Assembly (NCBI GenBank): GCA_028285755.1
Contig: JANQOQ010000008.1
Span: 193,399 to 257,398, forward strand
From: Puniceicoccaceae bacterium
GTDB taxonomy: Bacteria > Verrucomicrobiota > Verrucomicrobiia > Opitutales > JAFGAQ01
DNA: 64,000 nt
Direction of reading: 5' to 3'
The translations under genes and the position numbers were made by a program. Of the stretch, positions 20,321 through 38,663 are shown piece by piece; position 1 is the first letter of the stretch, and each line of letters begins with the position of its first letter. The notes under the pieces are model-generated. The model worked only from the letters and a program-made list of their open reading frames with translations, did not search any database and was not told the origin of the DNA.

Positions 20321-20439
<119 letters not shown>

Positions 20440-20523
20440 GTATTTACGGGATTTTCTTTGATTTCAGAATTTGCTCTTCAAAATGTTGAACATTCTCGAA
20501 CATTCCTGCATTTTCGTGAACTA

Positions 20524-20546
20524 AAACCAAACTTTTCACCAAACCT
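20524..20546 (+). repeat. 23-nt arm repeat AAACCAAACTTTTCACCAAACCT (left arm copy)
   Basis: Perfect direct copy of 38506-38528. It lies 85 bp inside attL, and the other copy lies 46 bp inside attR. It is a candidate arm-type integrase or Xis binding site. Confidence 0.6.
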
Positions 20547-20612
20547 TTTTAACTCAAAACACCCTCAAATCCCTTTAGGTATCAGCCTGAAGGCCATTTA
20601 AGGCAAAACCTT

Positions 20613-21320
20613 CTAAATCTTTTTAATCTTTTGTTCATCAAGGTTTTTTTCCAATATGCTTGTAAAACCTCTCCAAAATTCCTTGCTGTCTTTTTCTATT
20701 ACAGTCTCAAGTGTTAACTGAGCCTGAATTGCGTATGCCACAAATTCCTCAACTCTTGATTCCCTGCTAAGATGTTCTAGGGATTTCTTTAATTTCTGTA
20801 TTGTGAATTTTTGGGGTTTTTGGTCATGCGCAAATGATGCGTTGATATCAGAAACACACTGTTTTACGGCAGTAATTAAGGACTTTTCTCTGGATATTTC
20901 ACTTAAGAAATAGTTAGTTGAATTTACCAAATTCTGCTGTGCAACTAGAACAGCTAAGATAAATGTTGGTATGGAAACTAATAGAGTATCCGAAATATTC
21001 CATTCATTTCTATTTCCTAAATAAAGCAGAACGGGAATAGATATGCCGGCAATAATCACAAGAAAACCTGTGATGTGCACTAAAGCTTTAAAGGACTCTA
21101 ATTTGAGATTCCATGTATTTCCTGATTTTCCTGATCTCCATTTCAATAACTCCAAGATAGAAGAGAATAGCAAGCCTGACAAAAAAACCCAGGCAATCAT
21201 ATGATATACAATATCAAATGCGTTTATAGACCATTCTGGATAATCGAGCTTTTTGGAAAGCAAGAAGTTGATGAAAATTATTATAAATAGTAGTGAAGCT
21301 ATTTTTTTGGTAAGGAACAT
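20613..21320 (-). CDS. Island membrane protein (about 4 TM helices plus a charged helical C-terminal domain), unknown function
   Basis: 235-aa ORF. Hydrophobic segments are IASLLFIIIFINFLL, MIAWVFLSGLLFSSIL, ALVHITGFLVIIAGISIPVLLYL and LLVSIPTFILAVLVA, followed by a soluble tail of about 95 aa. It is co-directional with, and 63 bp downstream of, the HTH gene. Confidence 0.6.
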   Translation of the reverse strand: MFLTKKIASLLFIIIFINFLLSKKLDYPEWSINAFDIVYHMIAWVFLSGLLFSSILELLKWRSGKSGNTWNLKLESFKALVHITGFLVIIAGISIPVLLYLGNRNEWNISDTLLVSIPTFILAVLVAQQNLVNSTNYFLSEISREKSLITAVKQCVSDINASFAHDQKPQKFTIQKLKKSLEHLSRESRVEEFVAYAIQAQLTLETVIEKDSKEFWRGFTSILEKNLDEQKIKKI

Positions 21321-21383
21321 TCTATATAATTTTACTTGAAAGCTGTTGTATGATTTTTACCAAAAGACTACAACTTATATGAC

Positions 21384-21680
21384 TTAGAGATTTTTTTGAG
21401 CTAGAAATTCTATGTCTTCAAGCCTATAACGATAAGTATTGGGTAGTATCTCAACTGAACTAAGAATACCATCTTTTTTCATCTTCCAAAGCGTCCCGCG
21501 ACTTACGCCAAGCATCTTAGCAGCATCCTTTTGAGTCAGTAATAGCACTTCACGACCACCAGATGCCTTCATTGAAATCCTGCCGGCGATCAAATCTTCA
21601 AGCACCGCCTTATCAACAAAAGACAAGCTCTCATCCGTTTCACGGATTGTTCTTAGCAAGCTGATACTGGTCTTATTCAT
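21384..21680 (-). CDS. Excisionase/AlpA/MerR-type helix-turn-helix DNA-binding protein
   Basis: 98-aa ORF. LLTQKDAAKMLGVSRGTLWKMKKDGIL ... YRYRLEDIEFL is the HTH_17/excisionase-family pattern. Confidence 0.7.
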   Translation of the reverse strand: MNKTSISLLRTIRETDESLSFVDKAVLEDLIAGRISMKASGGREVLLLTQKDAAKMLGVSRGTLWKMKKDGILSSVEILPNTYRYRLEDIEFLAQKNL

Positions 21681-21901
21681 TGTTCCTCACACAGTATATG
21701 CGCGAGAAACCATCAAATATCCCAAGATTTTTTTGCAAAAAATCCATACAAGCTACCATGGCCATTAAGTATAGACTCTAATTTGTATCTTTGTTTTCTG
21801 GCGAGTGAGTCTTGTTAGAAACATTTCTTATCGATTGCGTCGATATAGCGTAATATTTCATGATATGTCTTAAAGATTTCAGTAAGTAATTAGAGTTTAC
21901 G

Positions 21902-24900
21902 ATGAAACGTCCTTTTTTTAATAAATCCATTACAGATCTGGAAGGTGCTTACAAAGACGGCTATAAAAATCCTGATCTTTTGAAGATACTTTTGGATGAG
22001 TTAAACCATCGTTCTACAAAACGATCTGACAAGCTCAAGCAGCAGATAAAAAATGCAATAAGCGAGAATAATCTACATAAGAGAGTAGACATAAAGGACG
22101 ATGTTACTTTAAAGCCCATACAAAAAGTAGAGCCAGCATCACCTGCTATACCAAGACAAGAAATCCCAAAAATTGAGAATAAGCCCGAAGATATTTTGTC
22201 GGCTTGGTCTGCTTTGGAGGTTTTGTCACCACCGACCTTTGATAAGCCAGAAAAACTGGCGGGTGGAGATAAGCTCGCTGTTGCTGATATACGCCATAAA
22301 GTCATGCCTTGGGAGAATGGAGTAGAGAGAGGCCGCAAAAATCAAAAACTCTACTATCATATTATCCTGGGCAGCATAAAAATGGATGAATCAGTTGCTG
22401 ATTTAATGAAAATCTATGCGGACAAGCGTGCTGAAAAGCCACTGGCTAAAGGTCGTGCTATTTTAGCCTCTGTCACTGTTAATAAAGAAGGCCAACCAGT
22501 TGGTGAATCTATGGTTACCATTGCTAGTTTCGGTTGGGGTGTTTCCAGGGCGTTAAAAGGTCACTTGAAGGATTTGGGAAACTGGTCTGCAACCGAGAAG
22601 GAACTCATCGAGGGTTTAGAGCCTATTCTGAACAAAACGGACGAAAATGGCGAAATAGCTCAGCTTAATTATGAAGTAATTCAAAATGCATATAATTGGC
22701 TTATCAAATCGCTTGAACTTCCTTCTCATTTAGTTTGCCCGCCCGAATTTGTACTCCGAACCTATCAGTATTATAAAAATGCTGAACCGCCAGAAGCATT
22801 GATATTGAACAGTTTTTTCCTTAATGATTTGGAAAAGGCAAAGCTTTCATTTCAAGGTAATAAGGCTACAGCGAACCTCAGGCGGTATCTAGGAGTTATT
22901 CAACCTCAATACCGACATAATTTATTGGTTGATAGTGAAGCTCTTGAGGAAACGATAGCACCCAGTTTGTTCCCAATTTCTTGTTGGTCAGGTCAAGGTC
23001 ATCATCCACTGGTTTTACTCCAGCAATCGGGTGTCAATTTAGCAGGGCAAGTCTTAGAGGATGAGGGTATCCTTGCGGTTAATGGGCCTCCTGGCACAGG
23101 CAAGACTACTTTATTACGGGATGTCGTTGCTGAGATTATAACTAAGCGCGCAAAGGCTATGAGTGCATTTGAAAACCCTTCTGAAGCATTCAAACATACA
23201 GGCAAAAAAATAAAGGCAGGAAATGGTTGGTTACATCTTTATGAGCTTCATCAATCTATACGTGGTCATGAAATACTAATTGCGTCTTCCAATAATAAAG
23301 CAGTGGAGAATGTAAGTGCTGAATTACCTGGCATTGATTCAATCGCTGATGATGTTGATTTGAGGTATTTCAAAACGATTTCCGACATACTTACGGGTAA
23401 GGATAGTTGGGGTCTCATTGCTGGAGTGCTTGGAAATTCACAGAACCGTTACGATTTTAAACAATCGTTTTGGTGGGATAAGGATTTCGGATTAGCAACC
23501 TATCTAGCGGAAGCATCAGGAACACCCCAATTTATTGAAGAGAAAGATAAAACAACACGTAAGCCTCATGTGATAAAAAATGAGAACCCACCAAAGAATG
23601 CAAATGACGCATTGCTCAGATGGAAAGCTGCCCAGCAAAAATTTAATAGCGCCTTAGATCAGGCCGAAGATGCCATCAATAAATTTGAGGTTATTAGGGT
23701 CAAAGTTAAGATCCTTTCCGCCCTAAAGGATCAAAAAAATGCAATTGCGGATTTACGATATTGGAAGTCTAAATGGCCAGGATTTTGGGCATGGCTATTT
23801 CAGCTATCACACTACCGCGAATGGAAGTCAGAATATACCAGCAGGCAAATCAAACTAAGAAAAATTGAACATCATCTTAGAAAACTTCAGAAAGATATAA
23901 ATCTTCCTACACTCAACATGGAAGCCATATCTGTTGAAATAGAACAATGCAAAAAGCGCCTTGGACTGACCATAGTTGATGAAGAATTTCATTCACTCGA
24001 CCATGATGTGAAACAAGGATTGTCGCCATGGCTTGATAATGAAACTCATAAGTTGCGTGAAAAAGTGTTTATTGAAGCAATGAAACTCCACAAGACGTTT
24101 ATTGATAGCGCAGCAAAGCCAATACGGCATAATTTGGGCGTGCTTATGAATGTTTGGGATGGAAAGTCATTACGAGAAAACAATGATCTTTTGCCGGATT
24201 TATGGGCATCCCTTTTTTTGATCGTTCCGGCTCTTTCAACAACGTTTGCTTCTGTAGATCGTATGATTGGCAAATTGCCAGCTGACTCTCTAGGGTGGCT
24301 TTTAATTGATGAAGCTGGACAGGCATTGCCTCAGGCTTCTGTGGGTGCGATAATGCGAACAAAACGCGCTTTCATCGTTGGTGATCCAATTCAAATTGAG
24401 CCTATAGTTGCATTGCCCGACACTCTTACAGAGTCAATTTGTCGTCAGTTTGGTATTGATTCAGATGATTATAATGCACCAACAGCCTCAACTCAAACAC
24501 TTGCCGATACTGCCACGCCCTACATGGCTGAATTTGCAAGCCAAGGTAGCAGCCGGACAGTGGGCATACCGCTTCTTGTCCATCGACGCTGTAGAGAGCC
24601 CATGTTTGGTATATCTAATTCGATTGCCTATGAAAATTTGATGATAAACAAAAAGGTCGCTAAGACATCTGATATTGAGAATTGTCTAGGACCTTCACAA
24701 TGGTTCCATATAGAGGGGGCTGCGAGGGATAAATGGAGCAAGGAAGAAGGACAAATGGTTTTGTCATTATTAAGCCAACTCAAAGATGCGGATGTTTATC
24801 CAGATCTTTACATTGTTACCCCATTTGTTGTTGTGCAAGATAACCTACGAAGAATTATCCGGGATAAAGGCATTCTTAAAGGCTGGGTAGATAATCCGAA

Positions 24901-25138
24901 ATGGGTTTATGAAAGAATTGGCACCGTTCATACTGTTCAAGGTCGTGAAGCTGAAGCTGTTATTTTCGTTTTAGGTGCTCCAGAATTAAAACAACAGGGT
25001 GCGCGAGGCTGGGCTGGAGGCAGGCCAAATTTACTTAATGTGGCGGTCACACGTGCTAAAGAGGTTTTATACGTAATCGGCAATAGAGAACTCTGGAAAA
25101 ACTCAGGAACTTTTAAGCAAGTCGATAGTCGCCTTTAG
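21902..25138 (+). CDS. Superfamily-1 helicase of the Upf1/DNA2-like (AAA_11/AAA_12) type with an unassigned N-terminal region
   Basis: 1078-aa ORF. Motifs seen: Walker A VNGPPGTGKTT (aa 393-403), Ia ILIASSNNKAVENV, II LLIDEAGQ (aa 800-807), III FIVGDPIQIEPI, V/VI GTVHTVQGREAEAVIFVLG and NVAVTRAKEVLYVIGN. There is an insertion of about 330 aa between Ia and II, and the first 380 aa or so have no motif I recognise. Confidence 0.9.
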   Translation: MKRPFFNKSITDLEGAYKDGYKNPDLLKILLDELNHRSTKRSDKLKQQIKNAISENNLHKRVDIKDDVTLKPIQKVEPASPAIPRQEIPKIENKPEDILSAWSALEVLSPPTFDKPEKLAGGDKLAVADIRHKVMPWENGVERGRKNQKLYYHIILGSIKMDESVADLMKIYADKRAEKPLAKGRAILASVTVNKEGQPVGESMVTIASFGWGVSRALKGHLKDLGNWSATEKELIEGLEPILNKTDENGEIAQLNYEVIQNAYNWLIKSLELPSHLVCPPEFVLRTYQYYKNAEPPEALILNSFFLNDLEKAKLSFQGNKATANLRRYLGVIQPQYRHNLLVDSEALEETIAPSLFPISCWSGQGHHPLVLLQQSGVNLAGQVLEDEGILAVNGPPGTGKTTLLRDVVAEIITKRAKAMSAFENPSEAFKHTGKKIKAGNGWLHLYELHQSIRGHEILIASSNNKAVENVSAELPGIDSIADDVDLRYFKTISDILTGKDSWGLIAGVLGNSQNRYDFKQSFWWDKDFGLATYLAEASGTPQFIEEKDKTTRKPHVIKNENPPKNANDALLRWKAAQQKFNSALDQAEDAINKFEVIRVKVKILSALKDQKNAIADLRYWKSKWPGFWAWLFQLSHYREWKSEYTSRQIKLRKIEHHLRKLQKDINLPTLNMEAISVEIEQCKKRLGLTIVDEEFHSLDHDVKQGLSPWLDNETHKLREKVFIEAMKLHKTFIDSAAKPIRHNLGVLMNVWDGKSLRENNDLLPDLWASLFLIVPALSTTFASVDRMIGKLPADSLGWLLIDEAGQALPQASVGAIMRTKRAFIVGDPIQIEPIVALPDTLTESICRQFGIDSDDYNAPTASTQTLADTATPYMAEFASQGSSRTVGIPLLVHRRCREPMFGISNSIAYENLMINKKVAKTSDIENCLGPSQWFHIEGAARDKWSKEEGQMVLSLLSQLKDADVYPDLYIVTPFVVVQDNLRRIIRDKGILKGWVDNPKWVYERIGTVHTVQGREAEAVIFVLGAPELKQQGARGWAGGRPNLLNVAVTRAKEVLYVIGNRELWKNSGTFKQVDSRL

Positions 25139-25148
25139 TAAGTATTGA

Positions 25149-25199
25149 CCACAAGTTCGTTCGGCTTGGCTGTTTGGGGGCCGCCAACCGAACTTGTGG
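25149..25199. other. Long imperfect GC-rich hairpin directly after the helicase stop
   Basis: CCACAAGTTCG ... CGAACTTGTGG forms an 11-bp outer stem, with an inner TTGGC/GCCAA helix. There is no T-run, so this is not a canonical intrinsic terminator. Confidence 0.45.
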
Positions 25200-25399
25200 A
25201 CAATACAAATAGGCATAATCTTATGGTAAAAGTGCGAGACACAATACCCTAAGGCCTCGCGGCCTTAGGAAAACAAGAAGTCTTCCAAGGGTGCTCCAAG
25301 CGCATGACAAGTAGCTGACAACCCCTTGGCAACGTCCTTCCAAGTTAAAAAACAAGGGGAAAACAAGGGGTTTTGTGCGAATGCTACGCATATACTTGT

Positions 25400-25759
25400 A
25401 TGGACACATTTTTTGAAAAGCACAAACGCCCTCACACGAGCATCCTTGAAGAGTGGTGGGACGAGATCGAAGCCATGCGCACCCAGGAGTGGCCTTATCG
25501 TAGGATTGCCGACTGGCTTAGGAACAATAAGGAAATTACAATCAGTGCCGAGGCCGTCCGGCAATTTTGCAAGGTTCGTGACATTTCCAAAGGCAATTCT
25601 GAAAGACAACCTAAAGCAAGACCTTCAAGAACACCGACTAAGCCGCTGAAACAAAACCGTTATCCTAAACCCAAAACTCCCGTTAAACGAATTTTTGAAT
25701 ACGATGATACCGAGCCCATCGATATTCATAATAAGAAATCTGCGAAATCAGGCTTTTAA
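25400..25759 (+). CDS. Small HTH-like protein with a basic low-complexity tail (transposase-N-terminal/regulator-like)
   Basis: Read from Met10 of the ORF: MDTFFEKHKRPHTSILEEWWDEIEAMRTQEWPYRRIADWLRNNKEITISAEAVRQFCKVR. YRRIADWL..N..ITIS..AV..F resembles a helix-turn-helix. The assignment is weak. Confidence 0.4.
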   Translation: MDTFFEKHKRPHTSILEEWWDEIEAMRTQEWPYRRIADWLRNNKEITISAEAVRQFCKVRDISKGNSERQPKARPSRTPTKPLKQNRYPKPKTPVKRIFEYDDTEPIDIHNKKSAKSGF

Positions 25760-25791
25760 ACCGTTTCGCAAGAGATGTAGACGATCTATAA

Positions 25792-26190
25792 CTATTTTGT
25801 GATGAGTATTTCGGCCAGCTGGGTAAGGCTTACAATTGTAACGCCCTGGACAGTTCTTCGATACAAATGACCAAAATCGCGCTTGTCTCCGGTAACCAGG
25901 TAATCGCATTTTCCGGCAATTGCTGAACATAGGATTGGAGCATCTTTTTCAACCAATTCTACCTTTAGCTCAAAACTGCTGGTTCCTACCCATTCTACGT
26001 TTTCACAGAGTTTATCAAACCCTTTTTGCCATTGAGGACGTTTAGCAACAATATTGCGGCTCGCTTCTTCCCGTGCGTAATCGCTGGAAACGGCGGTAGC
26101 TTTCTCCAATATCAGTGCAACAAGCCTTTCAACCTGGCTGTTGGAATTTGCACCCGCAAACAGGACATTGGCATCAAGAAAAATCCTCAT
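25792..26190 (-). CDS. PIN-domain toxin (VapC-like)
   Basis: 132-aa ORF with MRIFLDANVLFAG (N-terminal acidic D), ..VTGDKRDF (C-terminal acidic motif) and PIN-size length. The start overlaps the antitoxin stop (ATGA). Confidence 0.85.
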   Translation of the reverse strand: MRIFLDANVLFAGANSNSQVERLVALILEKATAVSSDYAREEASRNIVAKRPQWQKGFDKLCENVEWVGTSSFELKVELVEKDAPILCSAIAGKCDYLVTGDKRDFGHLYRRTVQGVTIVSLTQLAEILITK

Positions 26191-26423
26191 CAGGGATTCT
26201 TCTGATTCAGGATTGCCTCAAGAGATTCTTCTTCACTTAAGAATTCCGCAATTCTCTCTTCTGAGTAGGTCTCAACCGGCAAGCTTATAGAGGGGCGTAA
26301 TAATATCCCCTCATCCGTGGTCTCCATGATGAGCTGGTCATTTTGCTTCATACCAAAGCTTTTTCTGACCTTTGAAGGGATCGTAATAGCGCCCCGGCGG
26401 CCTATGGTGATTTTTTCAAACAT
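26190..26423 (-). CDS. AbrB/MazE/SpoVT-type antitoxin
   Basis: 77-aa ORF. ITIGRRGAITIPSKVRKSFGMKQNDQLIMETTDEGILLRP is the swapped-hairpin AbrB-like motif. It is translationally coupled to the PIN gene. Confidence 0.85.
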   Translation of the reverse strand: MFEKITIGRRGAITIPSKVRKSFGMKQNDQLIMETTDEGILLRPSISLPVETYSEERIAEFLSEEESLEAILNQKNP

Positions 26424-26442
26424 AATTACAGTATAGCCGAAT

Positions 26443-26458
26443 TTCCGTCATTCCGTCA
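26443..26458. promoter_or_regulatory. Tandem TTCCGTCA x2 just upstream of the antitoxin start (candidate operator)
   Basis: TTCCGTCATTCCGTCA lies 20-35 nt upstream of the antitoxin ATG (26423, minus strand). It is flanked by GCCGAA / TTCGGC inverted half-sites. Confidence 0.35.
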
Positions 26459-26736
26459 ACATTTTCGGCAATTTTAAAAAACAAGCCAAAGATATGACGC
26501 TTTCCCTAAGCTTGAGCTGACTCAATACAAATAAAATTTCCCTTTTCATATCAGGTTGGGCTATACTCGCTCTTGCCAGGTGCAAATTCACCTGGACGGG
26601 CTTAACAACTCAAGCACACATTCGGTCTTATGGGCCGGATGGCGAAGAAATAAGGCCAATCCGGCTGAATACTTCGCGCAGTGCGTGTGCGCTGTTGTTA
26701 ACGTCCGGTCTACCAATCGACCAAGGAGTAAGACCG

Positions 26737-26877
26737 ATGCAAAATACCGTATTCAAAAGTGACATTTTAAAAGACCTGGCCTTTTACAAAGCCATAAAAT
26801 TCTTTGCCGTTTCTAACGACAATTTCAGTGAATCAGTATCCCCCGCAGAGATCGAAAGCGATAACAAACAAGTTTGA
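26737..26877 (+). CDS. Small ORF (46 aa) with a strong Shine-Dalgarno, unknown function
   Basis: AAGGAG lies 8 nt upstream of the ATG at 26737. The product is MQNTVFKSDILKDLAFYKAIKFFAVSNDNFSESVSPAEIESDNKQV. It is preceded by a GC-richer hairpin-rich leader of about 180 nt. Confidence 0.35.
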   Translation: MQNTVFKSDILKDLAFYKAIKFFAVSNDNFSESVSPAEIESDNKQV

Positions 26878-27174
26878 TTATCCCCTTCGATACTCGACCT
26901 ATAAACTCTGGCAGACCTTGAGCAATCAAGGACTGCCTTCTTTTTAGGAGCTGCGCCCCTCGCCCAGTAAAGCCGTGTCCCCAATCTTCATTCGTGCCTC
27001 ATTGTAGATTGGGTGATCCCCCTCGGCGTTGACTGCGCACACCCGCTGTATGGGTCGGCTGGTCATGGGTTGCTTGAGCAACCCTTTTTCCATGAAAGCA
27101 TAAAGGAAGCGGCAGGGCATTTTGCGATTAACGCGCTTAAGAAAAGCAGGGAATACGCCGATTATTGATAGCGA

Positions 27175-27201
27175 TGAAACAGATTCGGGGATTCTGTTTC
27201 A
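27175..27201. repeat. Lox-like recombination-site candidate A (TGAAACAGATTCGGGGATTCTGTTTCA)
   Basis: 10-nt inverted arms TGAAACAGA(T)/(A)TCTGTTTCA flank an asymmetric G-rich centre. It is 26/27 identical to the reverse complement of 30939-30965 and lies 8 nt beyond the SIR2 stop codon. Confidence 0.6.
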
Positions 27202-27209
27202 TGTCAACT

Positions 27210-30200
27210 TTATTGAGACATAACCTTTGGATTCACTGCAAGAGCACCTTCCGAATTAAACTGAAGCTCACATTTCACATCCGATTGCTCCTTCAAGATA
27301 GTGTCACCCCATTTAGAGCCTGGGCATATAACATTCATTGGTATACCATCAGTTTGTATCCAAGCTGCTCCTCGTGCGAGATGAACAATCTTTCCTCGCA
27401 CATAAAGAGGTTTGGATGGATCTGTTTTATCTGCTGGAACAAAATGCACTTCTCTTCTTTCACCAATTGAAAAACTTTGTTTTTTACTTTCTCCAACTGT
27501 ATCACGATATTTTGAGAAGTTTTTCTCAATAAAATACAAGCCAGCGAGTATCGAAATAAATCGTGGATCCTTTGTCCCTTGGTATGCGGCAAGATTCAAC
27601 ACTGCAATTGCCTCCGAATTGGTAAGATTTAACCCCAAAATTGATTTTGCATACTCCAGCGCTAGTCGAAAATCATCAGGTGTATCTGTAATAGCTGGCT
27701 CAACTACCTTCTTTGCCTGAGCGTATTCACCATTCTTATTGTAAACTCTCGCAAGAAGATACCTAGACAGATGTGTACTATGCGAAGATTCAACGGCCCT
27801 AAGTAGAGAATCAATCTGCTTTGGGTTGTCCCCAATGTAGTGAGAAATGTCAGAAGAAAGAATCCAAAGCGCTTCTTTGTTCCTTGCAGAATTTATACCT
27901 TCTGTGATTTCTCTTTCAGCCTTAGCAAGATACTCTGCTGACTCAGATACATCGTGGTCCTCTATGAATTTCGCCCACCTGAAAAAGATGTTTGCAAGTC
28001 CATGTATACAATACTCGTCATTGGCTTTTATTTTCAATCCATTCCTAAAAGAAACCTCACTTTGTATTAAGTGTTTTCTTGCGATATCTATACTTTCACT
28101 ATTAAAAGCAAGATCAGATAGAATTTCACCTTTTGTATGGTGAAGTATCCTTTTCGGATTTATTTCGAGCGCCTTATCAATCTGTCCTAATGCAAGCGAA
28201 AACCTTTTCTCCCGAGAGAACATTCGAGCATAATGCTGGAACACATACATATTTTTAGGATCTTTTCTGCATGCTGTTTCAAAAAACTTAGTTTTCCCCT
28301 CCAAACTACTTATACTATCTACGAGAGAGTCTGTGCGAATGAAGCTCTCAAAAGCATCCCTATCAGATTTGTGAGTCAAATTTAGAAAACCTAGAGCTTT
28401 TTGTAATATACTTTCTTGTAATAAAGACTCTCCACAACGTTCCCATACGATCTGAGCAATCTTTTTGTGCCTAGGCCTAACACCATAGATTCCACGACTT
28501 ACATTGATATCTTCGTCTACGATAACTCCATCCAAATACTGATTCAAGATTGGATGCAGCTCAGTCTCCTTGAGATTTAACAGTTGAGCCAATAAACTAG
28601 TTCTGAGAATATTCCCATTTTGATAGAAGCAACACACAGACAGGTAAATCTCTTGAGCACAGGCATCGCTTATTCCACGATACTCATCTTCTAAAATAGC
28701 ATCAAAAGATCTGCCTTCAGTCGTTTCTCGCATTGTTACCAGAAGTTCTTGCCCTAAATTATTTTTAACCGCAGCACGTTGCAATTCAGGAGAAAGATCA
28801 TTTAACACACCTAAGCTAGAGTGTTTTTTCAAAAAACCTAGCAGCAACCCGATCTCTCGATCAGAAAGAATCTCAATTTCAAATTCCTTGCCACCGGGAC
28901 TTGTAGCAAGAAATTGATTCCATTCATTTTTTCTGCTGCCAAGAACAAAAAGAACCTGTCTTTTGTTCTCTCTAAATTTATGGAGTATATTCGCAATTCG
29001 AGTTTTAAATCTCGCAGCATTGTCTACAATAAATACAGCAGTTCCGTTGGTAGCGCTAAGAGCAAACTCAATATCCCCATCCAAGAAGTTTCCCACTTCT
29101 TTCAGATAGAAAATGGGGGCGGCATTTTCTTTTATTAGACGAACAGATAAAGCCATCAATAATGACGTCATGCCATACCCAGCAGGTGCTAGAACTGTTA
29201 GCACACTCGGACGACCCATTGGTGAGGTAATATAATCCAAGCATTCATTATACAAATCTTCCTCTAAATCACGTTCAAAATAGTCGCCTGTTCCTATCAA
29301 TGACCAACTGGGCTTATCTCCCTTTAAAAAGTTATCCAAGTTTCTTTTTTCTTCAAAAGGGGCCTGATTTACATAAACCCAAGAGGTGAAAAGTCTTAAA
29401 AATGGAGCAATGTTTTCATTTGCTAATGAGTGAAAATCTGGTGGAATTTCGGCTTTAAGTTTTTCCAGGTCAAAATCACTGATAGAATCTGAGAGTTGGC
29501 TTTTAAGTGATGAAACAAAATCAGTCAGGTTTTGAGGAATAGTTTCAATTCCATCAGACTTTAGAAGCATTTCTTCCAAGGTGTTTGTTGATGGAGAAAC
29601 CCTGAATGCACGTGGAAGTTCGGCGGGGTGATACTGATCTTTCAGATCTCTCAAAAGTGTTTCCCAGTTAGGATCACTGTTGGAATACCCAACATACAAG
29701 ACAGTGGAAACGGTAGAATCCATTTTCAACAAATCGAAGAGCATTTCTCTTTGTGATTTGAAGAGGTGGTAATCGTTTTTTGTGATGACAATGTTTGTTA
29801 GCCTCTCTCCATAGAGAATACCATGAAGATAAATTACTGGCATCTCCACATTACGATGGTAGTCTTTTACTTCTCTTGATAGCGTAAAAAAAACTGGCTT
29901 CTTTTTGATATCACGAATCTGCTCATAAGCGCGTTTGATAGATTCATCGTAATTGGTTGTGTATACAGATCTCCACTGTAACGACAACAACCATTTCAAA
30001 TCATCATCGGGCTCTGCATCACGAAATCTAGTTGCTAAATAACTCTCTAAAGAATCTCGATCTGTTTGCATTTCAACAACACTCGAAACGAGAATAAGAT
30101 CATCATTTCGTTCTATTGAAAATCTATCACAAAGCTCGTGCGCCAACTCTTTTCCAGTCGGGAGTCTTTTTCCGCCAGAAGTTACATTAAATCCAATTCC

Positions 30201-30269
30201 GGCTCCTAAAAATAAAACACATTTTCCGCTTTCAATTGAGCTTACTAGGCTAAGAGGTATTTCTGGCAT
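27210..30269 (-). CDS. SIR2-domain (SIR2_2-type, predicted NADase) protein fused to a degenerate P-loop NTPase-like module, TPR-like repeats and a C-terminal cold-shock-like beta-barrel
   Basis: 1019-aa ORF. SIR2_2 motifs: KCVLFLGAGIG (aa 16-25), VYTTNYD (N106), VIYLHG (H149), LYVGYSNSDPNW. A Walker-A-like LAPAGYGMTS (aa 360-369) has Met367 where Lys is expected, and a Walker-B-like AVFIVDNA follows. Helical repeats cover aa 655-925 (e.g. LALGQIDKALEINPKR, YLLARVYNKNGEYAQAKKVVEPAI). The tail GKIVHLARGAAWIQTDGIPMNVICPGSKWGDTILKEQSDVKCELQFNSEGALAVN resembles a CSD/OB fold. Confidence 0.85.
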   Translation of the reverse strand: MPEIPLSLVSSIESGKCVLFLGAGIGFNVTSGGKRLPTGKELAHELCDRFSIERNDDLILVSSVVEMQTDRDSLESYLATRFRDAEPDDDLKWLLSLQWRSVYTTNYDESIKRAYEQIRDIKKKPVFFTLSREVKDYHRNVEMPVIYLHGILYGERLTNIVITKNDYHLFKSQREMLFDLLKMDSTVSTVLYVGYSNSDPNWETLLRDLKDQYHPAELPRAFRVSPSTNTLEEMLLKSDGIETIPQNLTDFVSSLKSQLSDSISDFDLEKLKAEIPPDFHSLANENIAPFLRLFTSWVYVNQAPFEEKRNLDNFLKGDKPSWSLIGTGDYFERDLEEDLYNECLDYITSPMGRPSVLTVLAPAGYGMTSLLMALSVRLIKENAAPIFYLKEVGNFLDGDIEFALSATNGTAVFIVDNAARFKTRIANILHKFRENKRQVLFVLGSRKNEWNQFLATSPGGKEFEIEILSDREIGLLLGFLKKHSSLGVLNDLSPELQRAAVKNNLGQELLVTMRETTEGRSFDAILEDEYRGISDACAQEIYLSVCCFYQNGNILRTSLLAQLLNLKETELHPILNQYLDGVIVDEDINVSRGIYGVRPRHKKIAQIVWERCGESLLQESILQKALGFLNLTHKSDRDAFESFIRTDSLVDSISSLEGKTKFFETACRKDPKNMYVFQHYARMFSREKRFSLALGQIDKALEINPKRILHHTKGEILSDLAFNSESIDIARKHLIQSEVSFRNGLKIKANDEYCIHGLANIFFRWAKFIEDHDVSESAEYLAKAEREITEGINSARNKEALWILSSDISHYIGDNPKQIDSLLRAVESSHSTHLSRYLLARVYNKNGEYAQAKKVVEPAITDTPDDFRLALEYAKSILGLNLTNSEAIAVLNLAAYQGTKDPRFISILAGLYFIEKNFSKYRDTVGESKKQSFSIGERREVHFVPADKTDPSKPLYVRGKIVHLARGAAWIQTDGIPMNVICPGSKWGDTILKEQSDVKCELQFNSEGALAVNPKVMSQ

Positions 30270-30364
30270 AATTGCTACAAGAGCAATCTATTCCCTTTAA
30301 CCAGATTTAATCAAGAACACATTAGCTATAAGTTCCCAAGGATTATTCCCGGTCAGAAGGTGTT

Positions 30365-30913
30365 TTAATTGGAAAGCCAGCTTCTCTTTGCGAGTTCTTT
30401 TTCTTCAGGGCCAACAACATCCAAATATAACGATGTGGTTTCCAGTCTTTTATGACCCAACCACCTTTGCACCGTTGTAATTGGAACCTCATTCTTGATA
30501 TATGAAACTGCGTATGAGTGTCGTAGACCTTTAGGGCATGCTTTTATACCCGTAAGCTTCTCAGATACCATTATTCTTTTTATTGTCCTCCATCCCGTAG
30601 TCCTTGAGAAGCTCCACAAATATTGAGCATTGCGATTTAATTTAGCGTAAGCCCCCAATAATTTACTTGGCACGGGAATAGGACGAAAAATACCTTTTTC
30701 TCGTTGTTTGAGTGTCTCAAAAACAATCAATTTTTCAGAGAAATCGACTCTATCCCAGGTCAGGTTTAAAGCTTCGGAGATGCGACACCCTGTGTAAAAC
30801 AGTGTCAGGCAAAAGGCTCTTTTCGATAGGTCAGGCTCTTGCATGACGGCTTTGTAGAAGGCCTGTCTTTCGGCTTCGTTTAGGTATTTTCGCTGACCGT
30901 TTCTATCATACAT
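30365..30913 (-). CDS. Small catalytic-domain-only tyrosine recombinase (FimB/FimE-like size and layout)
   Basis: Catalytic residues are readable: YTGCRISEAL (R), GLRHSYAV (H-x-x-R), WLGHKRLETT (H) and SLYLD (Y). Starting at Met32 (MYDRNGQRKYLNEAERQAFY) gives 182 aa, collinear with 200-aa invertases. The ORF-track start at 31006 would read through the palindromic site B. Confidence 0.85.
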   Translation of the reverse strand: MYDRNGQRKYLNEAERQAFYKAVMQEPDLSKRAFCLTLFYTGCRISEALNLTWDRVDFSEKLIVFETLKQREKGIFRPIPVPSKLLGAYAKLNRNAQYLWSFSRTTGWRTIKRIMVSEKLTGIKACPKGLRHSYAVSYIKNEVPITTVQRWLGHKRLETTSLYLDVVGPEEKELAKRSWLSN

Positions 30914-30938
30914 TTGATTATTTTCATTTCGATAATAC

Positions 30939-30965
30939 TGAAACAGAATCCCCGATTCTGTTTCA
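30939..30965. repeat. Lox-like recombination-site candidate B (TGAAACAGAATCCCCGATTCTGTTTCA)
   Basis: Perfect 11-nt inverted arms TGAAACAGAAT/ATTCTGTTTCA flank a CCCCG centre. It is an inverted copy of site A and lies 25 nt upstream of the Met32 start of the small recombinase. Confidence 0.6.
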
Positions 30966-30968
30966 GCT

Positions 30969-30997
30969 ATGATAACATCCATAATTGGAGCAGTAAA
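30969..30997 (-). promoter_or_regulatory. Sigma70-like promoter candidate firing into site B and the recombinase-SIR2 unit
   Basis: The minus strand reads TTTACT (30997-30992), a 17-nt spacer, then TATCAT (30974-30969), ending 2 nt before site B. This is pattern match only, and the host promoter consensus is unknown. Confidence 0.25.
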
Positions 30998-31409
30998 TCG
31001 GGTCACTTGTGTATGCCTTGTTGCAGTTCTAAGCGTGGATGGCCTGGCGAAAAATTCGCATAAGAGCGCTTATGAGCTTGCCAATGAATATTCAAAGACG
31101 GGCGAAGGTGTAGGCATCATAATTCGTATTGGTAAAGTTGATATGGCACTTTTCAAGGAGCGCGGAATTTTGCCAGATTTAGTAGGTCAAAAACTTGAGG
31201 AGGTTTTAACCGAGTATAGTGTTATCAGTAAATCTTTCTGGGAGCTTGGAAACGGAGACTATACAGGAGTTGCTTTTGATCTAGGCCCGTTAACCTATAA
31301 AGATGATATTTCGGGAAAGTCCGTGTTTTCTATTAGTGGAGCAATTGCAGCTTCACCAAGGGTCGCTCAAAAGTTCAAGAACTTGCAGAAGTTCAATAAC
31401 AAATACTAG
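30969..31409 (+). CDS. Hypothetical protein (true start uncertain, probably internal)
   Basis: 146-aa ORF. The C-terminal 110 aa or so have ordinary globular composition (..SAYELANEYSKTGEGVGIIIRIGKVDMALFKERGILPDLVGQKLEEVL..). The first 40 aa or so overlap the recombinase upstream region and look non-native. Confidence 0.35.
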   Translation: MITSIIGAVNRVTCVCLVAVLSVDGLAKNSHKSAYELANEYSKTGEGVGIIIRIGKVDMALFKERGILPDLVGQKLEEVLTEYSVISKSFWELGNGDYTGVAFDLGPLTYKDDISGKSVFSISGAIAASPRVAQKFKNLQKFNNKY

Positions 31410-31422
31410 CGATACGCTACGC

Positions 31423-32190
31423 CTAGAAATTCATTCCTAATGCATCCAAAGCATTTTTTGTAGATACTGTGTCTAGCTGATTGTTTTTTTGATCCTTGCT
31501 GACTTCTTCGGTAATGCCAGATTCATTAAGTAAAGCAAAGTCAAATACCTCCAATTCTTGTTTGGCTTCTGCCAGGTCTATTACACCTTTTTGGTATCTT
31601 GCCTCAATGTCCTTTATTCTGTTTCGCTGATCTTGGGTGTCCTCGAGTTCTTTTTGAAGGATTTCATAGCGATCAGACTTATCTATAACGTTTTCCTTGG
31701 CTGCAATTATTTCTTCGCCCAGCAGCTTAGATAAGGCCACATCTGTCAAATTTTCATCAATTTGCATACCTTGCTTTTCGAGTAATGTGATAGCAGCTTC
31801 ACGATCTAATGTCCCATTGCCATCGTCATAGGATTTCAGAAGTTTTTCTGCATCGTCCACAAATTCATTTAGCTGGTTTAGCTCGGTTTCGACTGCTTCC
31901 ATTTGCGTTAATAAATTACTGATGCGATCATCAAGAACTGCTAGTTGGTCTTCAATTTGGCTTAATAGGTGATCGAGCAGTGAGCTTTTTTTGTTCTTAC
32001 CGTCCTTTTTATCATCTAGGTCTGGATTTCTTATGGTGGCACTAATAGTGCTTGAAAAGATGCTTTGGTCGGGATCAATCGCGCCACTCAAAACCTTAAC
32101 ATAGTCCTGCTTTTCCTCTTTATCGGAAATGCCTAAATAGTCTGTCGGTTTTGACTCTTTCATGTTTAATCCCTGTCTTGGTTTTCCCAT
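31423..32190 (-). CDS. Acidic coiled-coil protein, unknown function
   Basis: 255-aa ORF with long heptad-like stretches (LLDHLLSQIEDQLAVLDDRISNLLTQMEAVETELNQLNEFVDDAEKLL; EILQKELEDTQDQRNRIKDIEARYQKG). An alternative start is Met10 at 32163. Confidence 0.55.
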   Translation of the reverse strand: MGKPRQGLNMKESKPTDYLGISDKEEKQDYVKVLSGAIDPDQSIFSSTISATIRNPDLDDKKDGKNKKSSLLDHLLSQIEDQLAVLDDRISNLLTQMEAVETELNQLNEFVDDAEKLLKSYDDGNGTLDREAAITLLEKQGMQIDENLTDVALSKLLGEEIIAAKENVIDKSDRYEILQKELEDTQDQRNRIKDIEARYQKGVIDLAEAKQELEVFDFALLNESGITEEVSKDQKNNQLDTVSTKNALDALGMNF

Positions 32191-32313
32191 TATATTTCCA
32201 TATCATTAAAATGACGTTAATGCCTTTAGCATATTGGGGTATGCAGTTTAAGCTTTCGTTAAGGCTGTTCGTGTTGAACTAGCAGGAGATAAGAAACTAT
32301 TGGGGACGTAGCT

Positions 32314-32628
32314 ATGACTACAGAGAAACATTTTACAATCAAGAGCTTGGCTGAATATTGGGACTGTTCAGAGGGCTTTATTCGTGCGCGGATTGCGGAC
32401 GGGAGTTTACAGCATTTGAAAATGGGTGGTATGTATCGTATAAAGAAGGAATCCGTCCAAAGATATGAGGAGCACTGTTCATGCCGAGAGCAACCCGATG
32501 CGTTCCAGAATTCCGAATTCGCAATCTCCCAGGTAAGCCCAATCTTTACCTTTGCTGGTCAGAGAACCGCCGTTCAAAACGGATTTCAACGGGCACAGAT
32601 GATCCAGTCGCAGCGCAGCAATTCCTAG
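32314..32628 (+). CDS. Excisionase-type HTH protein (Xis-like)
   Basis: FTIKSLAEYWDCSEGFIRARIADGSLQHLKMGGMYRIKKESVQRYEE follows the HTH_17/excisionase pattern in the first 55 aa or so. The 3' 148 nt overlap the integrase gene in another frame. Confidence 0.7.
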   Translation: MTTEKHFTIKSLAEYWDCSEGFIRARIADGSLQHLKMGGMYRIKKESVQRYEEHCSCREQPDAFQNSEFAISQVSPIFTFAGQRTAVQNGFQRAQMIQSQRSNS

Positions 32629-33527
32629 CTGACTTTATCAATGGTTGGAATGCTCCACCTCCCAAAGATGTTATTACCTGTAATGAAATTATAGATCGGT
32701 ATCTTGAGCACAAGAGAAGTCACTATGAGAAAGACATTCGGTCTCAGCAAACATACGCGGGTTTGGTTTTTTGCCTAAAACCGATTAGAGAGTATTTTGG
32801 TAATCTTACAGCTAGTAGTCTAAACCGACAGCACTCCCGAAACTTCATTGAGCTTCAACGAAACAAAAATCTATCAGACGCGAGCATTCGCAAACAGCTA
32901 TCGATTTTTACGGCAGCACTTAATTTTGCAAAAGTGGAGCTTTGGATTGACGATTTTGCACCTCTCGAAAAGCCCAAGCCCCCCAGACCAAGGGATAAAT
33001 GGCTAAAACCTGATGAAGTAAAGCGATTCCTAGATGAATGTCATACATACCATATAAAGCTATTTACCCTATTGGCTTTGCATACGCTATCGAGGAAAGC
33101 TGCGATTCTCGACTTAAAATGGGAGCAGGTAGATTTTGAAAGTCGACTCATTGATTTTAACCCACCTGAAAGGGTAGATACAATCAAAAGGCGGGTGCCT
33201 GTAAGGATGAATGATACACTTTGTGGTGCATTGCTAGAGGCCAAAGATTTTTCTCAAACCGAATACGTTATCGAGTATAACGCTAAGCCTGTTTTGGATA
33301 ATAAGAAGGCTTTTGCTCGTGTGGGGGTAAGGGCTAAACTTAAATGGGTCACCCCTCACGTTTTAAGGCATACTGGAGCGACTTTACTTGCTAAGCAAGG
33401 GGTGCCTATGTGGGAAATTGCAGGCATCATGGGTGACCGTCTGGCGACTGTAGAGAAGCATTATGCGAAGCACCATCCCGACTATCTGAAAAACGCAGTC
33501 AATGCGTTGGATAATCTCTATGGATAA
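32481..33527 (+). CDS. Tyrosine-type integrase (second integration module)
   Basis: 348-aa ORF. It has an N-terminal arm-binding-like LYLCWSENRRSKRISTGTDD and a SAM-like core-binding region. Catalytic residues: TLSRKAAILDL (R), HVLRHTGATLL (H-x-x-R), GDRLATVEKHYAK (Y). Confidence 0.9.
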   Translation: MPRATRCVPEFRIRNLPGKPNLYLCWSENRRSKRISTGTDDPVAAQQFLADFINGWNAPPPKDVITCNEIIDRYLEHKRSHYEKDIRSQQTYAGLVFCLKPIREYFGNLTASSLNRQHSRNFIELQRNKNLSDASIRKQLSIFTAALNFAKVELWIDDFAPLEKPKPPRPRDKWLKPDEVKRFLDECHTYHIKLFTLLALHTLSRKAAILDLKWEQVDFESRLIDFNPPERVDTIKRRVPVRMNDTLCGALLEAKDFSQTEYVIEYNAKPVLDNKKAFARVGVRAKLKWVTPHVLRHTGATLLAKQGVPMWEIAGIMGDRLATVEKHYAKHHPDYLKNAVNALDNLYG

Positions 33528-33584
33528 GTGCGCACCAGTGAGCACATATATAATTTGGTTAAACTTCTAAGTATTTGAAAAGAT

Positions 33585-33629
33585 TGGTGGACCCTAGCGG
33601 GATCGAACCGCTGACCTCTTCGCTGCCAG
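33585..33629 (-). other. Orphan tRNA-Ala(GGC)-like 3' fragment (anticodon loop to CCA), an att-type sequence next to the second integrase
   Basis: The minus strand reads CTGGCAG CGAAG AGGTC AGCGG TTCGATC CCGCT AGGGTCC A CCA. It is near-identical in the variable and T arms to E. coli tRNA-Ala(GGC) as I remember it (GAGGTCAGCGGTTCGATCCCGCT). No complementary 5' half lies upstream, so it is not a functional tRNA. Confidence 0.8.
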
Positions 33630-33720
33630 TTTTCAGGTTAGTAGCGCACGCATTGGATTTCTGCGATTCAAAGTATTTGTGACAGTCAAGAATTAGCACC
33701 CATTCATACGTCTTTCAGTG

Positions 33721-33749
33721 ATAAGTGCGCACGTGTGCGCACATCTTAT
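33721..33749. promoter_or_regulatory. Imperfect palindrome ATAAGTGCGCAC-GT-GTGCGCACATCTTAT (operator or oriT/nic-region candidate)
   Basis: It contains two copies of the self-complementary GTGCGCAC. The 13-mer GATAAGTGCGCAC (33720-33732) also occurs at 33523-33535, overlapping the integrase stop codon, so the two copies flank the tRNA-Ala fragment. Confidence 0.4.
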
Positions 33750-33880
33750 GGAATATCCAAGTCTGTTATTTTATATTCATTTCAATAACTTATATGAATA
33801 CATGCGCAACCATTGGTCATAATTTGTTAAGAATATAGCCTTATGGTTGTAATCGTAAGTGTGTAGCATTTGCGGGGTAG

Positions 33881-33913
33881 CAAGATGTGTTTTTGTAAAC
33901 AAAAACCATCTTG
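33881..33913. promoter_or_regulatory. Inverted repeat about 105 nt upstream of mobC (oriT candidate)
   Basis: CAAGATG(T)GTTTTTG-TAAA-CAAAAACCATCTTG has 14 paired positions with a 1-nt bulge. It is followed by further short hairpins (GGGG-TGAGTAT-CCCC, GGTGC-TTT-GCACC). Confidence 0.4.
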
Positions 33914-34018
33914 GCAAGGGGTGAGTATCCCCCCGTTGCATCCCCTTTGGGCGGTGCTTTGCACCTTTTAATCACGCCGCCGGACAAAATCCCAGTGGCA
34001 AACGTAAAGGAATCTGCC

Positions 34019-34366
34019 ATGGCAAGACCCCGTTTACCGGAGAATAGCCAAAAAAGGACAAAGCAGGTGATATTCCGTTTAACAGAGGCTGAATATCACC
34101 AGTTGTCCGTTATGGCGGCGCGTGCTGGCTTTAGTGTAAACACTTTCGCCAGGTATGTAGCGTTGGCGCGAGCCAAGCGCATTATTGTGAAGACCCATGC
34201 CCGGAGCGATCCAGCCCTTATCAAGAGACTGGAACGCATCGGGCATAATTTGAATCAGCTAACGCGCTACTCGCATTGTTCGGGGCAAGTCCCTTCACAA
34301 ATCCATGAACTGTGCGCACACATTCATGACATTGTTCATCGTGACATTGAGGAGATAAACCTATAA
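34019..34366 (+). CDS. mobC: MobC-family relaxosome accessory protein (ribbon-helix-helix)
   Basis: KQVIFRLTEAEYHQLSVMAARAGFSVNTFARYVAL ... RIGHNLNQLTR matches the MobC pattern. The start is set at the internal ATG with AAGGA upstream (34019); the ORF-track start at 33911 is a TTG with non-native-looking sequence. Confidence 0.8.
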   Translation: MARPRLPENSQKRTKQVIFRLTEAEYHQLSVMAARAGFSVNTFARYVALARAKRIIVKTHARSDPALIKRLERIGHNLNQLTRYSHCSGQVPSQIHELCAHIHDIVHRDIEEINL

Positions 34367-35529: not shown

Positions 35530-35658
35530 TTTTTATGCTAAACCATAAAGCATAAAGTGACACTTAACGGTTTATGGTTTTACACAAAAAGTATGTAATA
35601 TCAAACTTTGACTTTCAAACAACATACTTTTTGCGCAATTTTCTTGTAATTTGAAAGT

Positions 35659-36867: not shown

Positions 36868-36935
36868 TTCCATCCAGCATTAATTCGCTAAATACCTTGT
36901 TTAACGGTAAATATTCTCAACAAAGTTTACAGTTG

Positions 36936-36975
36936 GTGGTGAAATTTGGAGTAGGAACGTGGTGAATTTTGGAGT
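36936..36975 (+). repeat. Two 17-nt direct repeats GTGGTGAA(A/T)TTTGGAGT, 23-nt period
   Basis: The copies lie at 36936-36952 and 36959-36975 and differ at one position. The core TGGTGAAAtTTTGG resembles the reverse complement of the 23-nt arm repeat (TTGGTGAAAAGTTTGG). Confidence 0.5.
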
Positions 36976-37000
36976 CAAAAATTGCCTGTTTGTTGCCTTT

Positions 37001-37076
37001 AATCTGTACAAATTGTAAATTGAATTGCCAATCTGTACGAATTACGATCTTACGGTCTGTTACGTTTTAATCTGTA
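37001..37076 (+). repeat. Three copies of AATCTGTA in the ATPase-integrase intergenic region
   Basis: AATCTGTA occurs at 37001-37008, 37030-37037 and 37069-37076 (spacings 29 and 39 nt). Confidence 0.4.
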
Positions 37077-37137
37077 AGTTGCTCATGGATAACGGTTTGG
37101 GCGATTGGGTAGTGAAAAGCCGTATTTCAAGCAATAC

Positions 37138-38445: not shown

Positions 38446-38505
38446 AGATGTGAGGGTTGAACTTCAGTGAACATCTATAAACATGCAAAATATGATAAAA
38501 ACGTC

Positions 38506-38528
38506 AAACCAAACTTTTCACCAAACCT
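38506..38528 (+). repeat. 23-nt arm repeat AAACCAAACTTTTCACCAAACCT (right arm copy, between int and attR)
   Basis: Perfect direct copy of 20524-20546. Confidence 0.6.
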
Positions 38529-38574
38529 AATAAAATTAGCACTTAAGTCGTTGATTATAAACACTTGGTCTTTG

Positions 38575-38663
38575 GGCTCATAACCTGAAGGTCCTCGGTT
38601 CAAATCCGAGCCCTGCACCCAATTTCCCAAGGCCTTAGCACCCGCTAAGGCCTTTTTTATTAA
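38575..38663 (+). repeat. attR-type direct repeat containing a displaced tRNA-Met 3' fragment (38575-38621)
   Basis: GGCTCATAACCTGAAGGTCCTCGGTTCAAATCCGAGCCCTGCACCCA plus a terminator copy. There is no 5' half of the tRNA upstream of it. Confidence 0.95.

Follow-up and report, generated by a model that had tools for sequence, protein, structure and literature searches.

Among the helicase-containing defence systems of bacteria, those compared here (Mokosh, Nhi, Hachiman, Gabija and CoCoNuT) each couple a motor to a nuclease. The Mokosh type II protein is a 132-kDa monomer, which protected only against one single-stranded DNA (ssDNA) phage, and in Mokosh the active site of the phospholipase D (PLD) nuclease is required for defence. 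Upf1-like CnuH helicases, which carry a large coiled-coil insertion past the Walker A motif, were described in the CoCoNuT study (Bell et al., eLife 2024, PMC11090510); they are typically paired with a downstream winged helix-turn-helix (wHTH)-nuclease, for which the insertion was modelled as the docking site. The present analysis concerns a helicase gene in a stretch of 64,000 nucleotides from a Puniceicoccaceae bacterium (GenBank assembly GCA_028285755.1, contig JANQOQ010000008.1, positions 193,399 to 257,398), which is called the window in the following and to which coordinates refer unless another sequence is named. The gene (21902-25138, + strand) encodes a stand-alone, Upf1-like protein of 1078 aa, assigned to superfamily 1B (SF1B), and is the sole conserved unit at its locus. 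As judged from sequence comparison, its family is a variant of the Upf1-like helicases associated with defence, one that stands alone and lacks a nuclease, and the explanation which accounts best for the family, with about an even chance of being correct, is that of a candidate defence helicase against phages or plasmids which is encoded by a single gene and would work without a nuclease.

Motifs and structure of the helicase

A preliminary description of the locus, made from the letters of the sequence, had reported a stand-alone helicase of the Upf1/DNA2 class with 1078 aa and a complete set of superfamily 1 (SF1) motifs. Both statements were borne out, the first by the open reading frame (ORF), Pfam, Foldseek and the homologues, and the second by the translation. 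The Walker A motif GPPGTGKT (nt 23084-23107), whose lysine is K401, occupies aa 395-402, motif Ia (ASSNNKAVENVS) lies at about aa 461-472, motif II (LLIDEAGQ, with DEAGQ at nt 24308-24322) at aa 800-807, motif III (GDPIQIEP) at aa 827-834, motif V (TVHTVQGREAE) at aa 1008-1018 and motif VI (VAVTRAK) at aa 1047-1053. All of these motifs (I, Ia, II, III, V and VI) are intact and invariant across an alignment of 30 homologues (alignment A1). Pfam assigned AAA_11 to aa 382-475 and AAA_12 to aa 896-1062 (47.3 and 43.4 bits, respectively; cutoff 27), and neither Pfam nor NCBIfam assigned a domain to aa 1-380. When a profile of the family was compared with the sequences in the PDB, the matches were limited to the cores of IGHMBP2, Upf1, SETX and Sen1. 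The full-length AlphaFold2 model (pLDDT, a predicted score for the local distance difference test, 80; predicted template modelling score (pTM) 0.72) was matched by Foldseek, with a probability of 1.0, to SETX/Sen1, Aquarius, Upf1, IGHMBP2 and Dna2 (8ftm, 8rd3, 4b3g, 2xzl and 5mzn). Because of these profile and structure matches, the helicase core is predicted to be of the Upf1-like SF1B type. A chance origin of the ORF is excluded by the more than 4,000 homologues found at E <= 1e-5.

The protein, whose parts are all encoded on the + strand, begins with a helical segment (aa 1-57, 21902-22072) in which AlphaFold2 predicted three helices with a pLDDT of about 88. The segment is conserved in A1, with the pattern RPFF..I.ELE....D..FL..L..EL..R.T.RA, and is optional in the family, being missing from a distant clade and from some close homologues, the matches of which start near aa 90. 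It is followed by a variable linker (aa 58-94, 22073-22183), which differs in length, could not be aligned in A1 and is predicted to be disordered (pLDDT below 50 for aa 58-81). The family-specific N-terminal alpha/beta domain (aa 95-365, 22184-22996), with the hallmarks W102, E106, P136-W137, G197, W212, W228, N303-S304-F305, D309 and W362, precedes the first part of RecA-like domain 1A (aa 366-475, 22997-23326). This part contains a Q-motif-like LLQQxxVN, the Walker A motif and motif Ia, and corresponds to Pfam AAA_11 and to positions 263-326 of the MkoC profile. A helical insertion of about 300 aa (aa 476-775, 23327-24226), which is variable in length within the family and includes a long predicted helical hairpin, separates it from the second part of domain 1A (aa 776-884, 24227-24553), where motifs II and III, invariant in A1, are found and the MkoC profile matches again. 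RecA-like domain 2A (aa 885-1078, 24554-25138) carries motifs V and VI and corresponds to Pfam AAA_12. The protein ends about 25 residues past motif VI without a C-terminal effector domain, and the C-termini of the homologues coincide with its own in A1.

Regarding the insertion, the preliminary description had noted about 330 partly coiled-coil residues between motifs Ia and II, which agrees with the AlphaFold2 model, where this gap of about 330 aa is nearly all helical, with helices at aa 567-622 (56 residues), 636-666 (31 residues), 673-690, 713-752 and 761-774. Its position is that of domain 1C, the 'prong', in the structures of Upf1 and Sen1. The window helicase is about 75 aa shorter in the insertion than most homologues (1078 versus about 1,150 aa in total), and a few other members are shortened at the same place. 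The insertion alone did not match any PADLOC model, except for a weak coiled-coil match to LmuB.

The N-terminal domain

The first 380 aa or so had been described as lacking any recognisable motif, and this was upheld in all searches made with the domain. A Pfam search of 55 diverse N-terminal domains of the family gave no family match beyond noise; a weak match to DUF7382 in five of the 55 (best E 0.004) was considered as a possible identity and taken as noise. No match was obtained from NCBIfam, from PADLOC or in a profile search of the PDB sequences, and Foldseek found no match to the domain in the PDB (best E 0.07, template modelling score about 0.1) or in BFVD. The domain is nevertheless modelled well in isolation, with a pLDDT of 89 and a pTM of 0.82 for aa 91-385 in AlphaFold2. 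Used alone as the query, it yielded 636 representatives of clusters at 50% identity; in all of the best 150 listed matches among the 636 it is situated near the N-terminus, and the full-length proteins have about 1,000-1,300 aa. All homologues examined, down to an identity of 21%, have kept it. Conserved and always coupled to this helicase, the domain defines the family, and it may be the new effector or sensor that the preliminary description had put forward as one of two alternatives.

Residues that are invariant or nearly so down to 21% identity are W102, E106, P110, P136-W137, G197, W212, W228, L302-N303-S304-F305, D309-L310 and W362. The polar residues with this degree of conservation in the 55 diverse domains are E106, N303, S304 and D309, plus Q374, Q375 and N379 of the Q-like motif; D174 and E178 are invariant in close homologues and lost in distant ones. 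Neither a conserved (D/E)xK, D...(D/E)xK or HxK motif nor a His/Cys cluster was found across the 55 domains, and conservation of a PD-(D/E)xK motif or of Fe-S cysteines is likewise lacking there. Read from the alignments, these residues agree better with a module for binding or regulation than with a classical nuclease, and would still be compatible with an unusual enzyme.

Actinobacterial homologues (L064, L066, L067, L071, L076 and L080) show a Gly/Ala-rich hydrophobic insert at aa ~190-250 (e.g., AILGSVLGPVLGGIAAAVAAKF) within the N-terminal domain, which could be an amphipathic or membrane-touching segment. A domain swap in the actinobacterial members was ruled out, as they retain the hallmarks W..E..SP, PW and LNSF..DL in addition to this insert.

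Size and distribution of the family

With the full-length protein as the query, 4,045 homologues were found at E <= 1e-5, with a typical length of about 1,150 aa. The best 120 of these were nearly all 1,040-1,200 aa long, were 46-57% identical to the window helicase and covered the whole query. At least 453 relatives were found when one genome per GTDB species was considered. The relatives belong to the Alpha-, Beta-, Gamma- and Deltaproteobacteria, Bacteroidota, Firmicutes, Actinobacteria, Acidobacteria, Verrucomicrobia and Nitrospirae, and full-length copies are located on 25 plasmids. In Escherichia coli, two of 5,426 complete genomes carry a homologue, one of them being that of strain H6 (RG48_RS15330, WP_073464713.1). 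The family is large and phylogenetically patchy and has one fixed architecture, in which an optional helical segment and an alpha/beta domain of about 270 aa are followed by the split domain 1A and domain 2A.

Fusions are rare and consist of DNA-binding or zinc-ribbon modules only (DUF5710, Cys-rich), with no effector added. The Cys-rich module (CxxC ... CxC/CxxC ... GDFY[LM]HxEPG) was observed in the N-terminal part of a Legionella homologue (L074, aa 1-178), after DUF5710; the same module, which has no Pfam match, is C-terminal in homologue P0016 (aa ~1150-1313). A phage origin of the family was considered and rejected, the sole full-length match being an unverified and unannotated Klebsiella 'phage' record.

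Comparison with known defence systems

The best-scoring profile overall was that of MkoC of Mokosh type II (PADLOC PDLC03924, E 2.4e-62), in which aa 385-480 of the window helicase align with profile positions 263-326 and aa 553-1068 with positions 438-950 (of 1136). MkoC, too, is one large polypeptide with an Upf1-like SF1 helicase, encoded by a single gene in defence islands. However, the C-terminal PLD nuclease of MkoC is absent here, as the window protein stops at profile position 950, and the N-terminal 262 positions of the MkoC profile are not matched by the N-terminal domain. The motif HxK(x)4D occurs neither in the helicase nor in any frame of the 660 bp downstream (25139-25800), and Pfam detected no nuclease domain, PLD included, in the helicase. 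No PLD-type ORF was found in the 64-kb window, where the two chance matches to HxK(x)4D both lie outside the island that carries the helicase and are without GSxN. The preliminary description had seen no nuclease partner, and these scans of the gene, its downstream region and the window lead to the same result. Two candidates were rejected in this connection. A truncated Mokosh II with a downstream PLD remnant is ruled out by the lack of HxK(x)4D in 25139-25800 and by the homologues, which end at the same residue; a PLD partner elsewhere in the window was not found, the two HxK(x)4D matches lacking GSxN and belonging to unrelated ORFs.

Regarding Mokosh type I, the helicase core of MkoA was matched with an E value of 1.2e-23, but no MkoB-like PLD gene is adjacent to the helicase in the window or in the set of 82 loci used throughout this comparison (79 from GTDB, that of the closest metagenomic homologue, and the window locus twice, as the window and as the public contig), and no serine-threonine kinase domain was found by Pfam in the window helicase. 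Because the protein ends at profile position 950, HxK(x)4D and a PLD ORF are lacking and the N-terminus does not match, the window helicase is neither Mokosh type I nor type II. CnuH of the CoCoNuT systems was compared by description; it resembles the window helicase in the large, partly coiled-coil insertion past Walker A and in having defence genes among the neighbours. In contrast, the effector CnuE with its wHTH domain and the McrBC-like CnuBC are absent, the downstream genes differ from locus to locus and form no cluster, and no SmpB-like OB, RelE-like or wHTH domain was detected in the N-terminal domain.

Nhi and Dna2 likewise combine, in one polypeptide, an accessory domain at the N-terminus with an SF1B helicase after it, and Dna2 is a structural match to the core. 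The Nhi profile, however, aligns only around Walker A (E 0.003), and both Nhi and Dna2 carry recognisable nucleases, whereas none was detected in the window helicase. Upf1, Sen1/SETX, IGHMBP2 and Aquarius have the RecA core fold and all motifs in common with it, but the identity is 11-16%, and nothing in them corresponds to the N-terminal domain or to the length of the insertion.

Gene neighbourhood of the homologues

ORFs were called in the 82 loci, and all 1,302 flanking proteins were clustered. Besides the helicase itself, no cluster was represented in more than 8 of the 82 loci and none had a fixed position or strand; a search for small ORFs around related helicase loci likewise found no conserved flanking ones. 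The closest homologue (57% identity) has unrelated neighbours. The helicase family is a solitary gene without a conserved neighbour. A housekeeping family with a conserved non-defence context, which the preliminary description had named as an outcome that would speak against its interpretation, is not what was found.

The genes within +/-4 positions of the homologues were scanned with PADLOC in three batches totalling 70 loci. Strong matches were JetC, SngABC, PDC-S06/S28/S41 and BrxH in the batch of 21 loci; SngC, DpdE/F, PsyrT, HerA + SIR2, ZorD, LmuB and PD-Lambda-3 in that of 27 loci; and GajA/B, DruE, Avs3a, ZorB, SngB/C and type I and type II methyltransferases in that of 22 loci. Known defence systems that are often situated near the homologues are Shango, Wadjet, Gabija, Druantia, Dpd, Zorya, restriction-modification and Avs. 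In E. coli H6, the helicase gene is located in an integrase-bounded island, beside a Shango-like trio of TerB, ATPase and helicase genes and a DUF4238 gene.

Shango-like genes (TerB, ATPase, helicase) are the most recurrent neighbouring system. They were observed near the helicase in five of the 82 loci (L022, L032, L052, L049 and L013), in addition to the case of E. coli H6 (L084, 2931372-2938494); position and orientation vary, with no fixed operon, and in L022 they are on the same strand at a distance of 52 nt from the helicase. A homologue with 38% identity is encoded on an IncFIB/IncFII conjugative plasmid of Klebsiella pneumoniae (L082; CP067827.1, 221252-242797), where it is surrounded by insertion sequence (IS) elements, a pair of genes for an HNH endonuclease and an ATP-binding protein, DUF4145, DUF1778 and an hxsABCD radical-SAM cluster.

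Neighbouring genes in the window

A gene for a helix-turn-helix (HTH) protein of the excisionase/AlpA type (HTH_17; 98 aa, 21384-21680, - strand) lies 221 bp upstream of the helicase and is divergent from it, and a gene for a membrane protein (235 aa, 20613-21320, - strand) lies 63 bp beyond the HTH gene and adjoins the left attachment site attL; neither is part of the helicase unit. The spacings and orientations given in the preliminary description were correct. Its assignment of the first protein to an excisionase/MerR-type HTH holds as far as Pfam HTH_17 is concerned (34.6 bits against a cutoff of 27, E 2.4e-8), whereas the score against the excisionase model TIGR01764 was below the cutoff. 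The HTH_17 gene next to the helicase is probably the island's own excision factor or regulator, one of two excisionase-type genes. For the second protein, four transmembrane (TM) helices and a charged tail had been predicted. A Kyte-Doolittle analysis showed four hydrophobic segments (aa 1-26, 34-60, 76-104 and 108-132) and a tail of about 100 aa that is charged, but in the public gene call the protein begins 19 codons further on (216 aa) and is without the first hydrophobic segment, so that it has three or four TM helices, according to which start is the true one. No family match was obtained for the membrane protein, which among 5.8 billion proteins matched only itself, i.e., it is an ORFan. 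The ORF downstream of the helicase (128 aa) showed only a weak Pfam match to HTH_32.

The preliminary description had further suggested that the helicase works together with the HTH and membrane proteins, and had proposed to look for homologues of both near related helicases. None were found: tblastn searches with the HTH protein, the membrane protein and the 128-aa ORF against 80 related loci gave nothing below E 0.1. Together with the clustering of the 82 loci, the search for small ORFs and the lack of any other homologue of the membrane protein, this refutes the suggested partnership, against which the preliminary description itself had said that unconserved neighbours would speak.

The island carrying the helicase

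The helicase is located in an island of 18.2 kb (20440-38574) with a G+C content of 0.35-0.45, compared with about 0.49 outside. A direct repeat of 89 nt forms the boundaries of the island; its left copy (attL, 20351-20439, + strand) covers the 3' half of a tRNA-Met gene (20321-20397, partly inside attL) and the terminator of that gene, and its right copy (attR, 38575-38663, + strand) is 99% identical to attL. The island encodes three recombinases, of which two are full-length integrases and the third is a short tyrosine recombinase: one integrase gene (37138-38445) is next to attR, and the second integrase gene (32481-33527) is accompanied by the second HTH_17 gene (32314-32628). A NikA-like protein (33911-34366), a MobA/VirD2 relaxase (34366-35529) and an AAA_14-DUF4143 ATPase (35659-36867) are also encoded. 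A VapBC-like pair of a PIN toxin and a MazE/AbrB-type antitoxin (25792-26423, - strand), the coding regions of which overlap by one base, is located between the helicase and a gene for a SIR2-nSTAND5-TPR protein (27210-30269, - strand). In the latter, of 1019 aa, a SIR2_2 domain at the N-terminus and TPR repeats at the C-terminus accompany an nSTAND_NTPase5 domain. PADLOC matched only its SIR2 part (ThsA, Dsr2), and the protein has the appearance of an Avs-like STAND defence protein, of a type for which PADLOC has no separate model. The island is an integrative mobilisable element at tRNA-Met with the helicase among defence-type cargo.

A 27-nt inverted repeat (27175-27201 and 30939-30965, 96% complementary) was observed around a segment of 3.7 kb that contains the SIR2-nSTAND5-TPR gene and a short tyrosine recombinase, which weakly resembles DNA invertases; within the island this segment could form a nested defence module, either invertible (phase-variable) or of a cassette-like kind. 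A direct repeat of 23 nt in exact copies just inside the island ends (20524-20546 and 38506-38528) may represent putative arm-type binding sites of the integrase. Rfam, promoter and terminator scans of the helicase locus gave nothing relevant. A small bacterial signal recognition particle (SRP) RNA (Rfam RF00169, 68 bits) is encoded elsewhere in the window (62276-62374, - strand).

Proposed function and alternative explanations

An anti-phage or anti-plasmid function of the family appears reasonably probable. A mechanism in which the motor itself is the effector, with no nuclease involved, and the N-terminal domain serves as the sensor or gate is a tentative extension of this proposal and a rather doubtful one. 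In such a mechanism the N-terminal domain, with its invariant tryptophans and no nuclease-type catalytic constellation, would act as a sensor or as a clamp gating the motor, and an ATP-driven 5'-to-3' translocase on the ssDNA or RNA of the invader would be the effector. The enlarged prong-like insertion might provide a wedge or a docking surface, and the motor would strip proteins or unwind replication or transcription intermediates without cleavage.

Several points weigh against the proposal of a nuclease-free defence helicase. The surveyed nuclease-NTPase defence systems each combine an NTPase with a nuclease and Mokosh needs its PLD nuclease, so that there is little precedent for a nuclease-free mechanism. 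The substrate (DNA or RNA), the polarity and the oligomeric state would be those of the helicase class, from which they are derived here. The enrichment of homologues beside defence genes is suggestive, the association being a tally of strong PADLOC matches without a matched genomic control, i.e., an unquantified one. Many neighbours of the homologues are ordinary housekeeping genes; a mixture of housekeeping and defence neighbours is the pattern expected for a gene inserting at many sites. A description of the family is absent from the Mokosh, DefensePredictor, domain-centric discovery, metagenomic selection and CoCoNuT papers, and as far as the literature searched shows the family has been undescribed so far.

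Among the other explanations, it is unlikely, though by a margin that deserves attention, that the N-terminal domain is a cryptic nuclease or another enzymatic effector, which would make the protein a fused system of the Nhi, Dna2 or Mokosh II type, destroying the nucleic acid threaded by the motor. The order of an alpha/beta domain of about 270 aa and an SF1B helicase parallels that in Dna2 and Nhi, with Dna2 among the structural matches, the domain is obligatorily coupled to the motor, an invariant E106 in its first helix and a nearly invariant D309 are available, and the defence function of Mokosh needs the active site of its nuclease. Yet no search matched the domain to a nuclease profile or fold, D174 and E178 are lost in distant homologues, and family-wide there is no (D/E)xK, HxK, His-Me or GIY-YIG motif, the invariant residues being mostly Trp, Pro and Gly. 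An effector outside the protein that is unlinked or supplied by the host, e.g., a nuclease of the PLD or HEPN kind such as MkoB or CnuE, would make the helicase one half of a split system. The similarity of the core to MkoC and MkoA, the highest found, speaks for this, as does the wHTH-nuclease which the coiled-coil helicases of the CnuH group typically have downstream and which was modelled to dock on the insertion (PMC11090510); but no linked effector gene was seen in the 82 loci and no PLD-type ORF in the window, and single genes that move on plasmids and islands would lose an unlinked partner at transfer, which leaves only a slim chance for a split system.

A role outside immunity, in which the helicase would serve the mobile element (in replication, transfer, establishment or anti-defence) or a niche housekeeping task, is quite unlikely. 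It would suit the position inside a mobilisable island with a relaxase, the copies on conjugative plasmids and the housekeeping genes that are neighbours of some homologues, but at other loci there is no link to relaxase, replication or transfer genes, the insertion sites vary and are often amid defence genes, and the sparse distribution, with 2 of 5,426 E. coli genomes, argues against housekeeping. The probability that helicase, divergent HTH and membrane protein form a three-gene system is close to negligible. Its basis is local adjacency only, with a divergent intergenic region of 221 bp and the HTH and membrane genes in tandem, whereas a homologue of neither neighbour is found near any of the 80 related loci, the neighbours of the closest homologue are different ones, the membrane protein matches nothing but itself, and HTH_17 is a standard part of integrative elements, with a second copy beside an integrase of the same island.

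Implications

The HTH and membrane genes are incidental genes of the island and not partners of the helicase, so that a false lead is removed and the interest is greater in the helicase family than in the local trio of genes. Thousands of family members present a motor without a recognisable effector and are frequent among defence genes. The native copy of E. coli H6 (WP_073464713.1) makes the question experimentally tractable. If the helicase does not protect alone, effectors acting in trans would be indicated. If it does, interference by translocation would be a bacterial immune mechanism, a function would be gained for a conserved domain without known relatives, and the family would represent a bacterial counterpart of the nuclease-free antiviral helicases of eukaryotes, as a new class beside the nuclease-NTPase systems.

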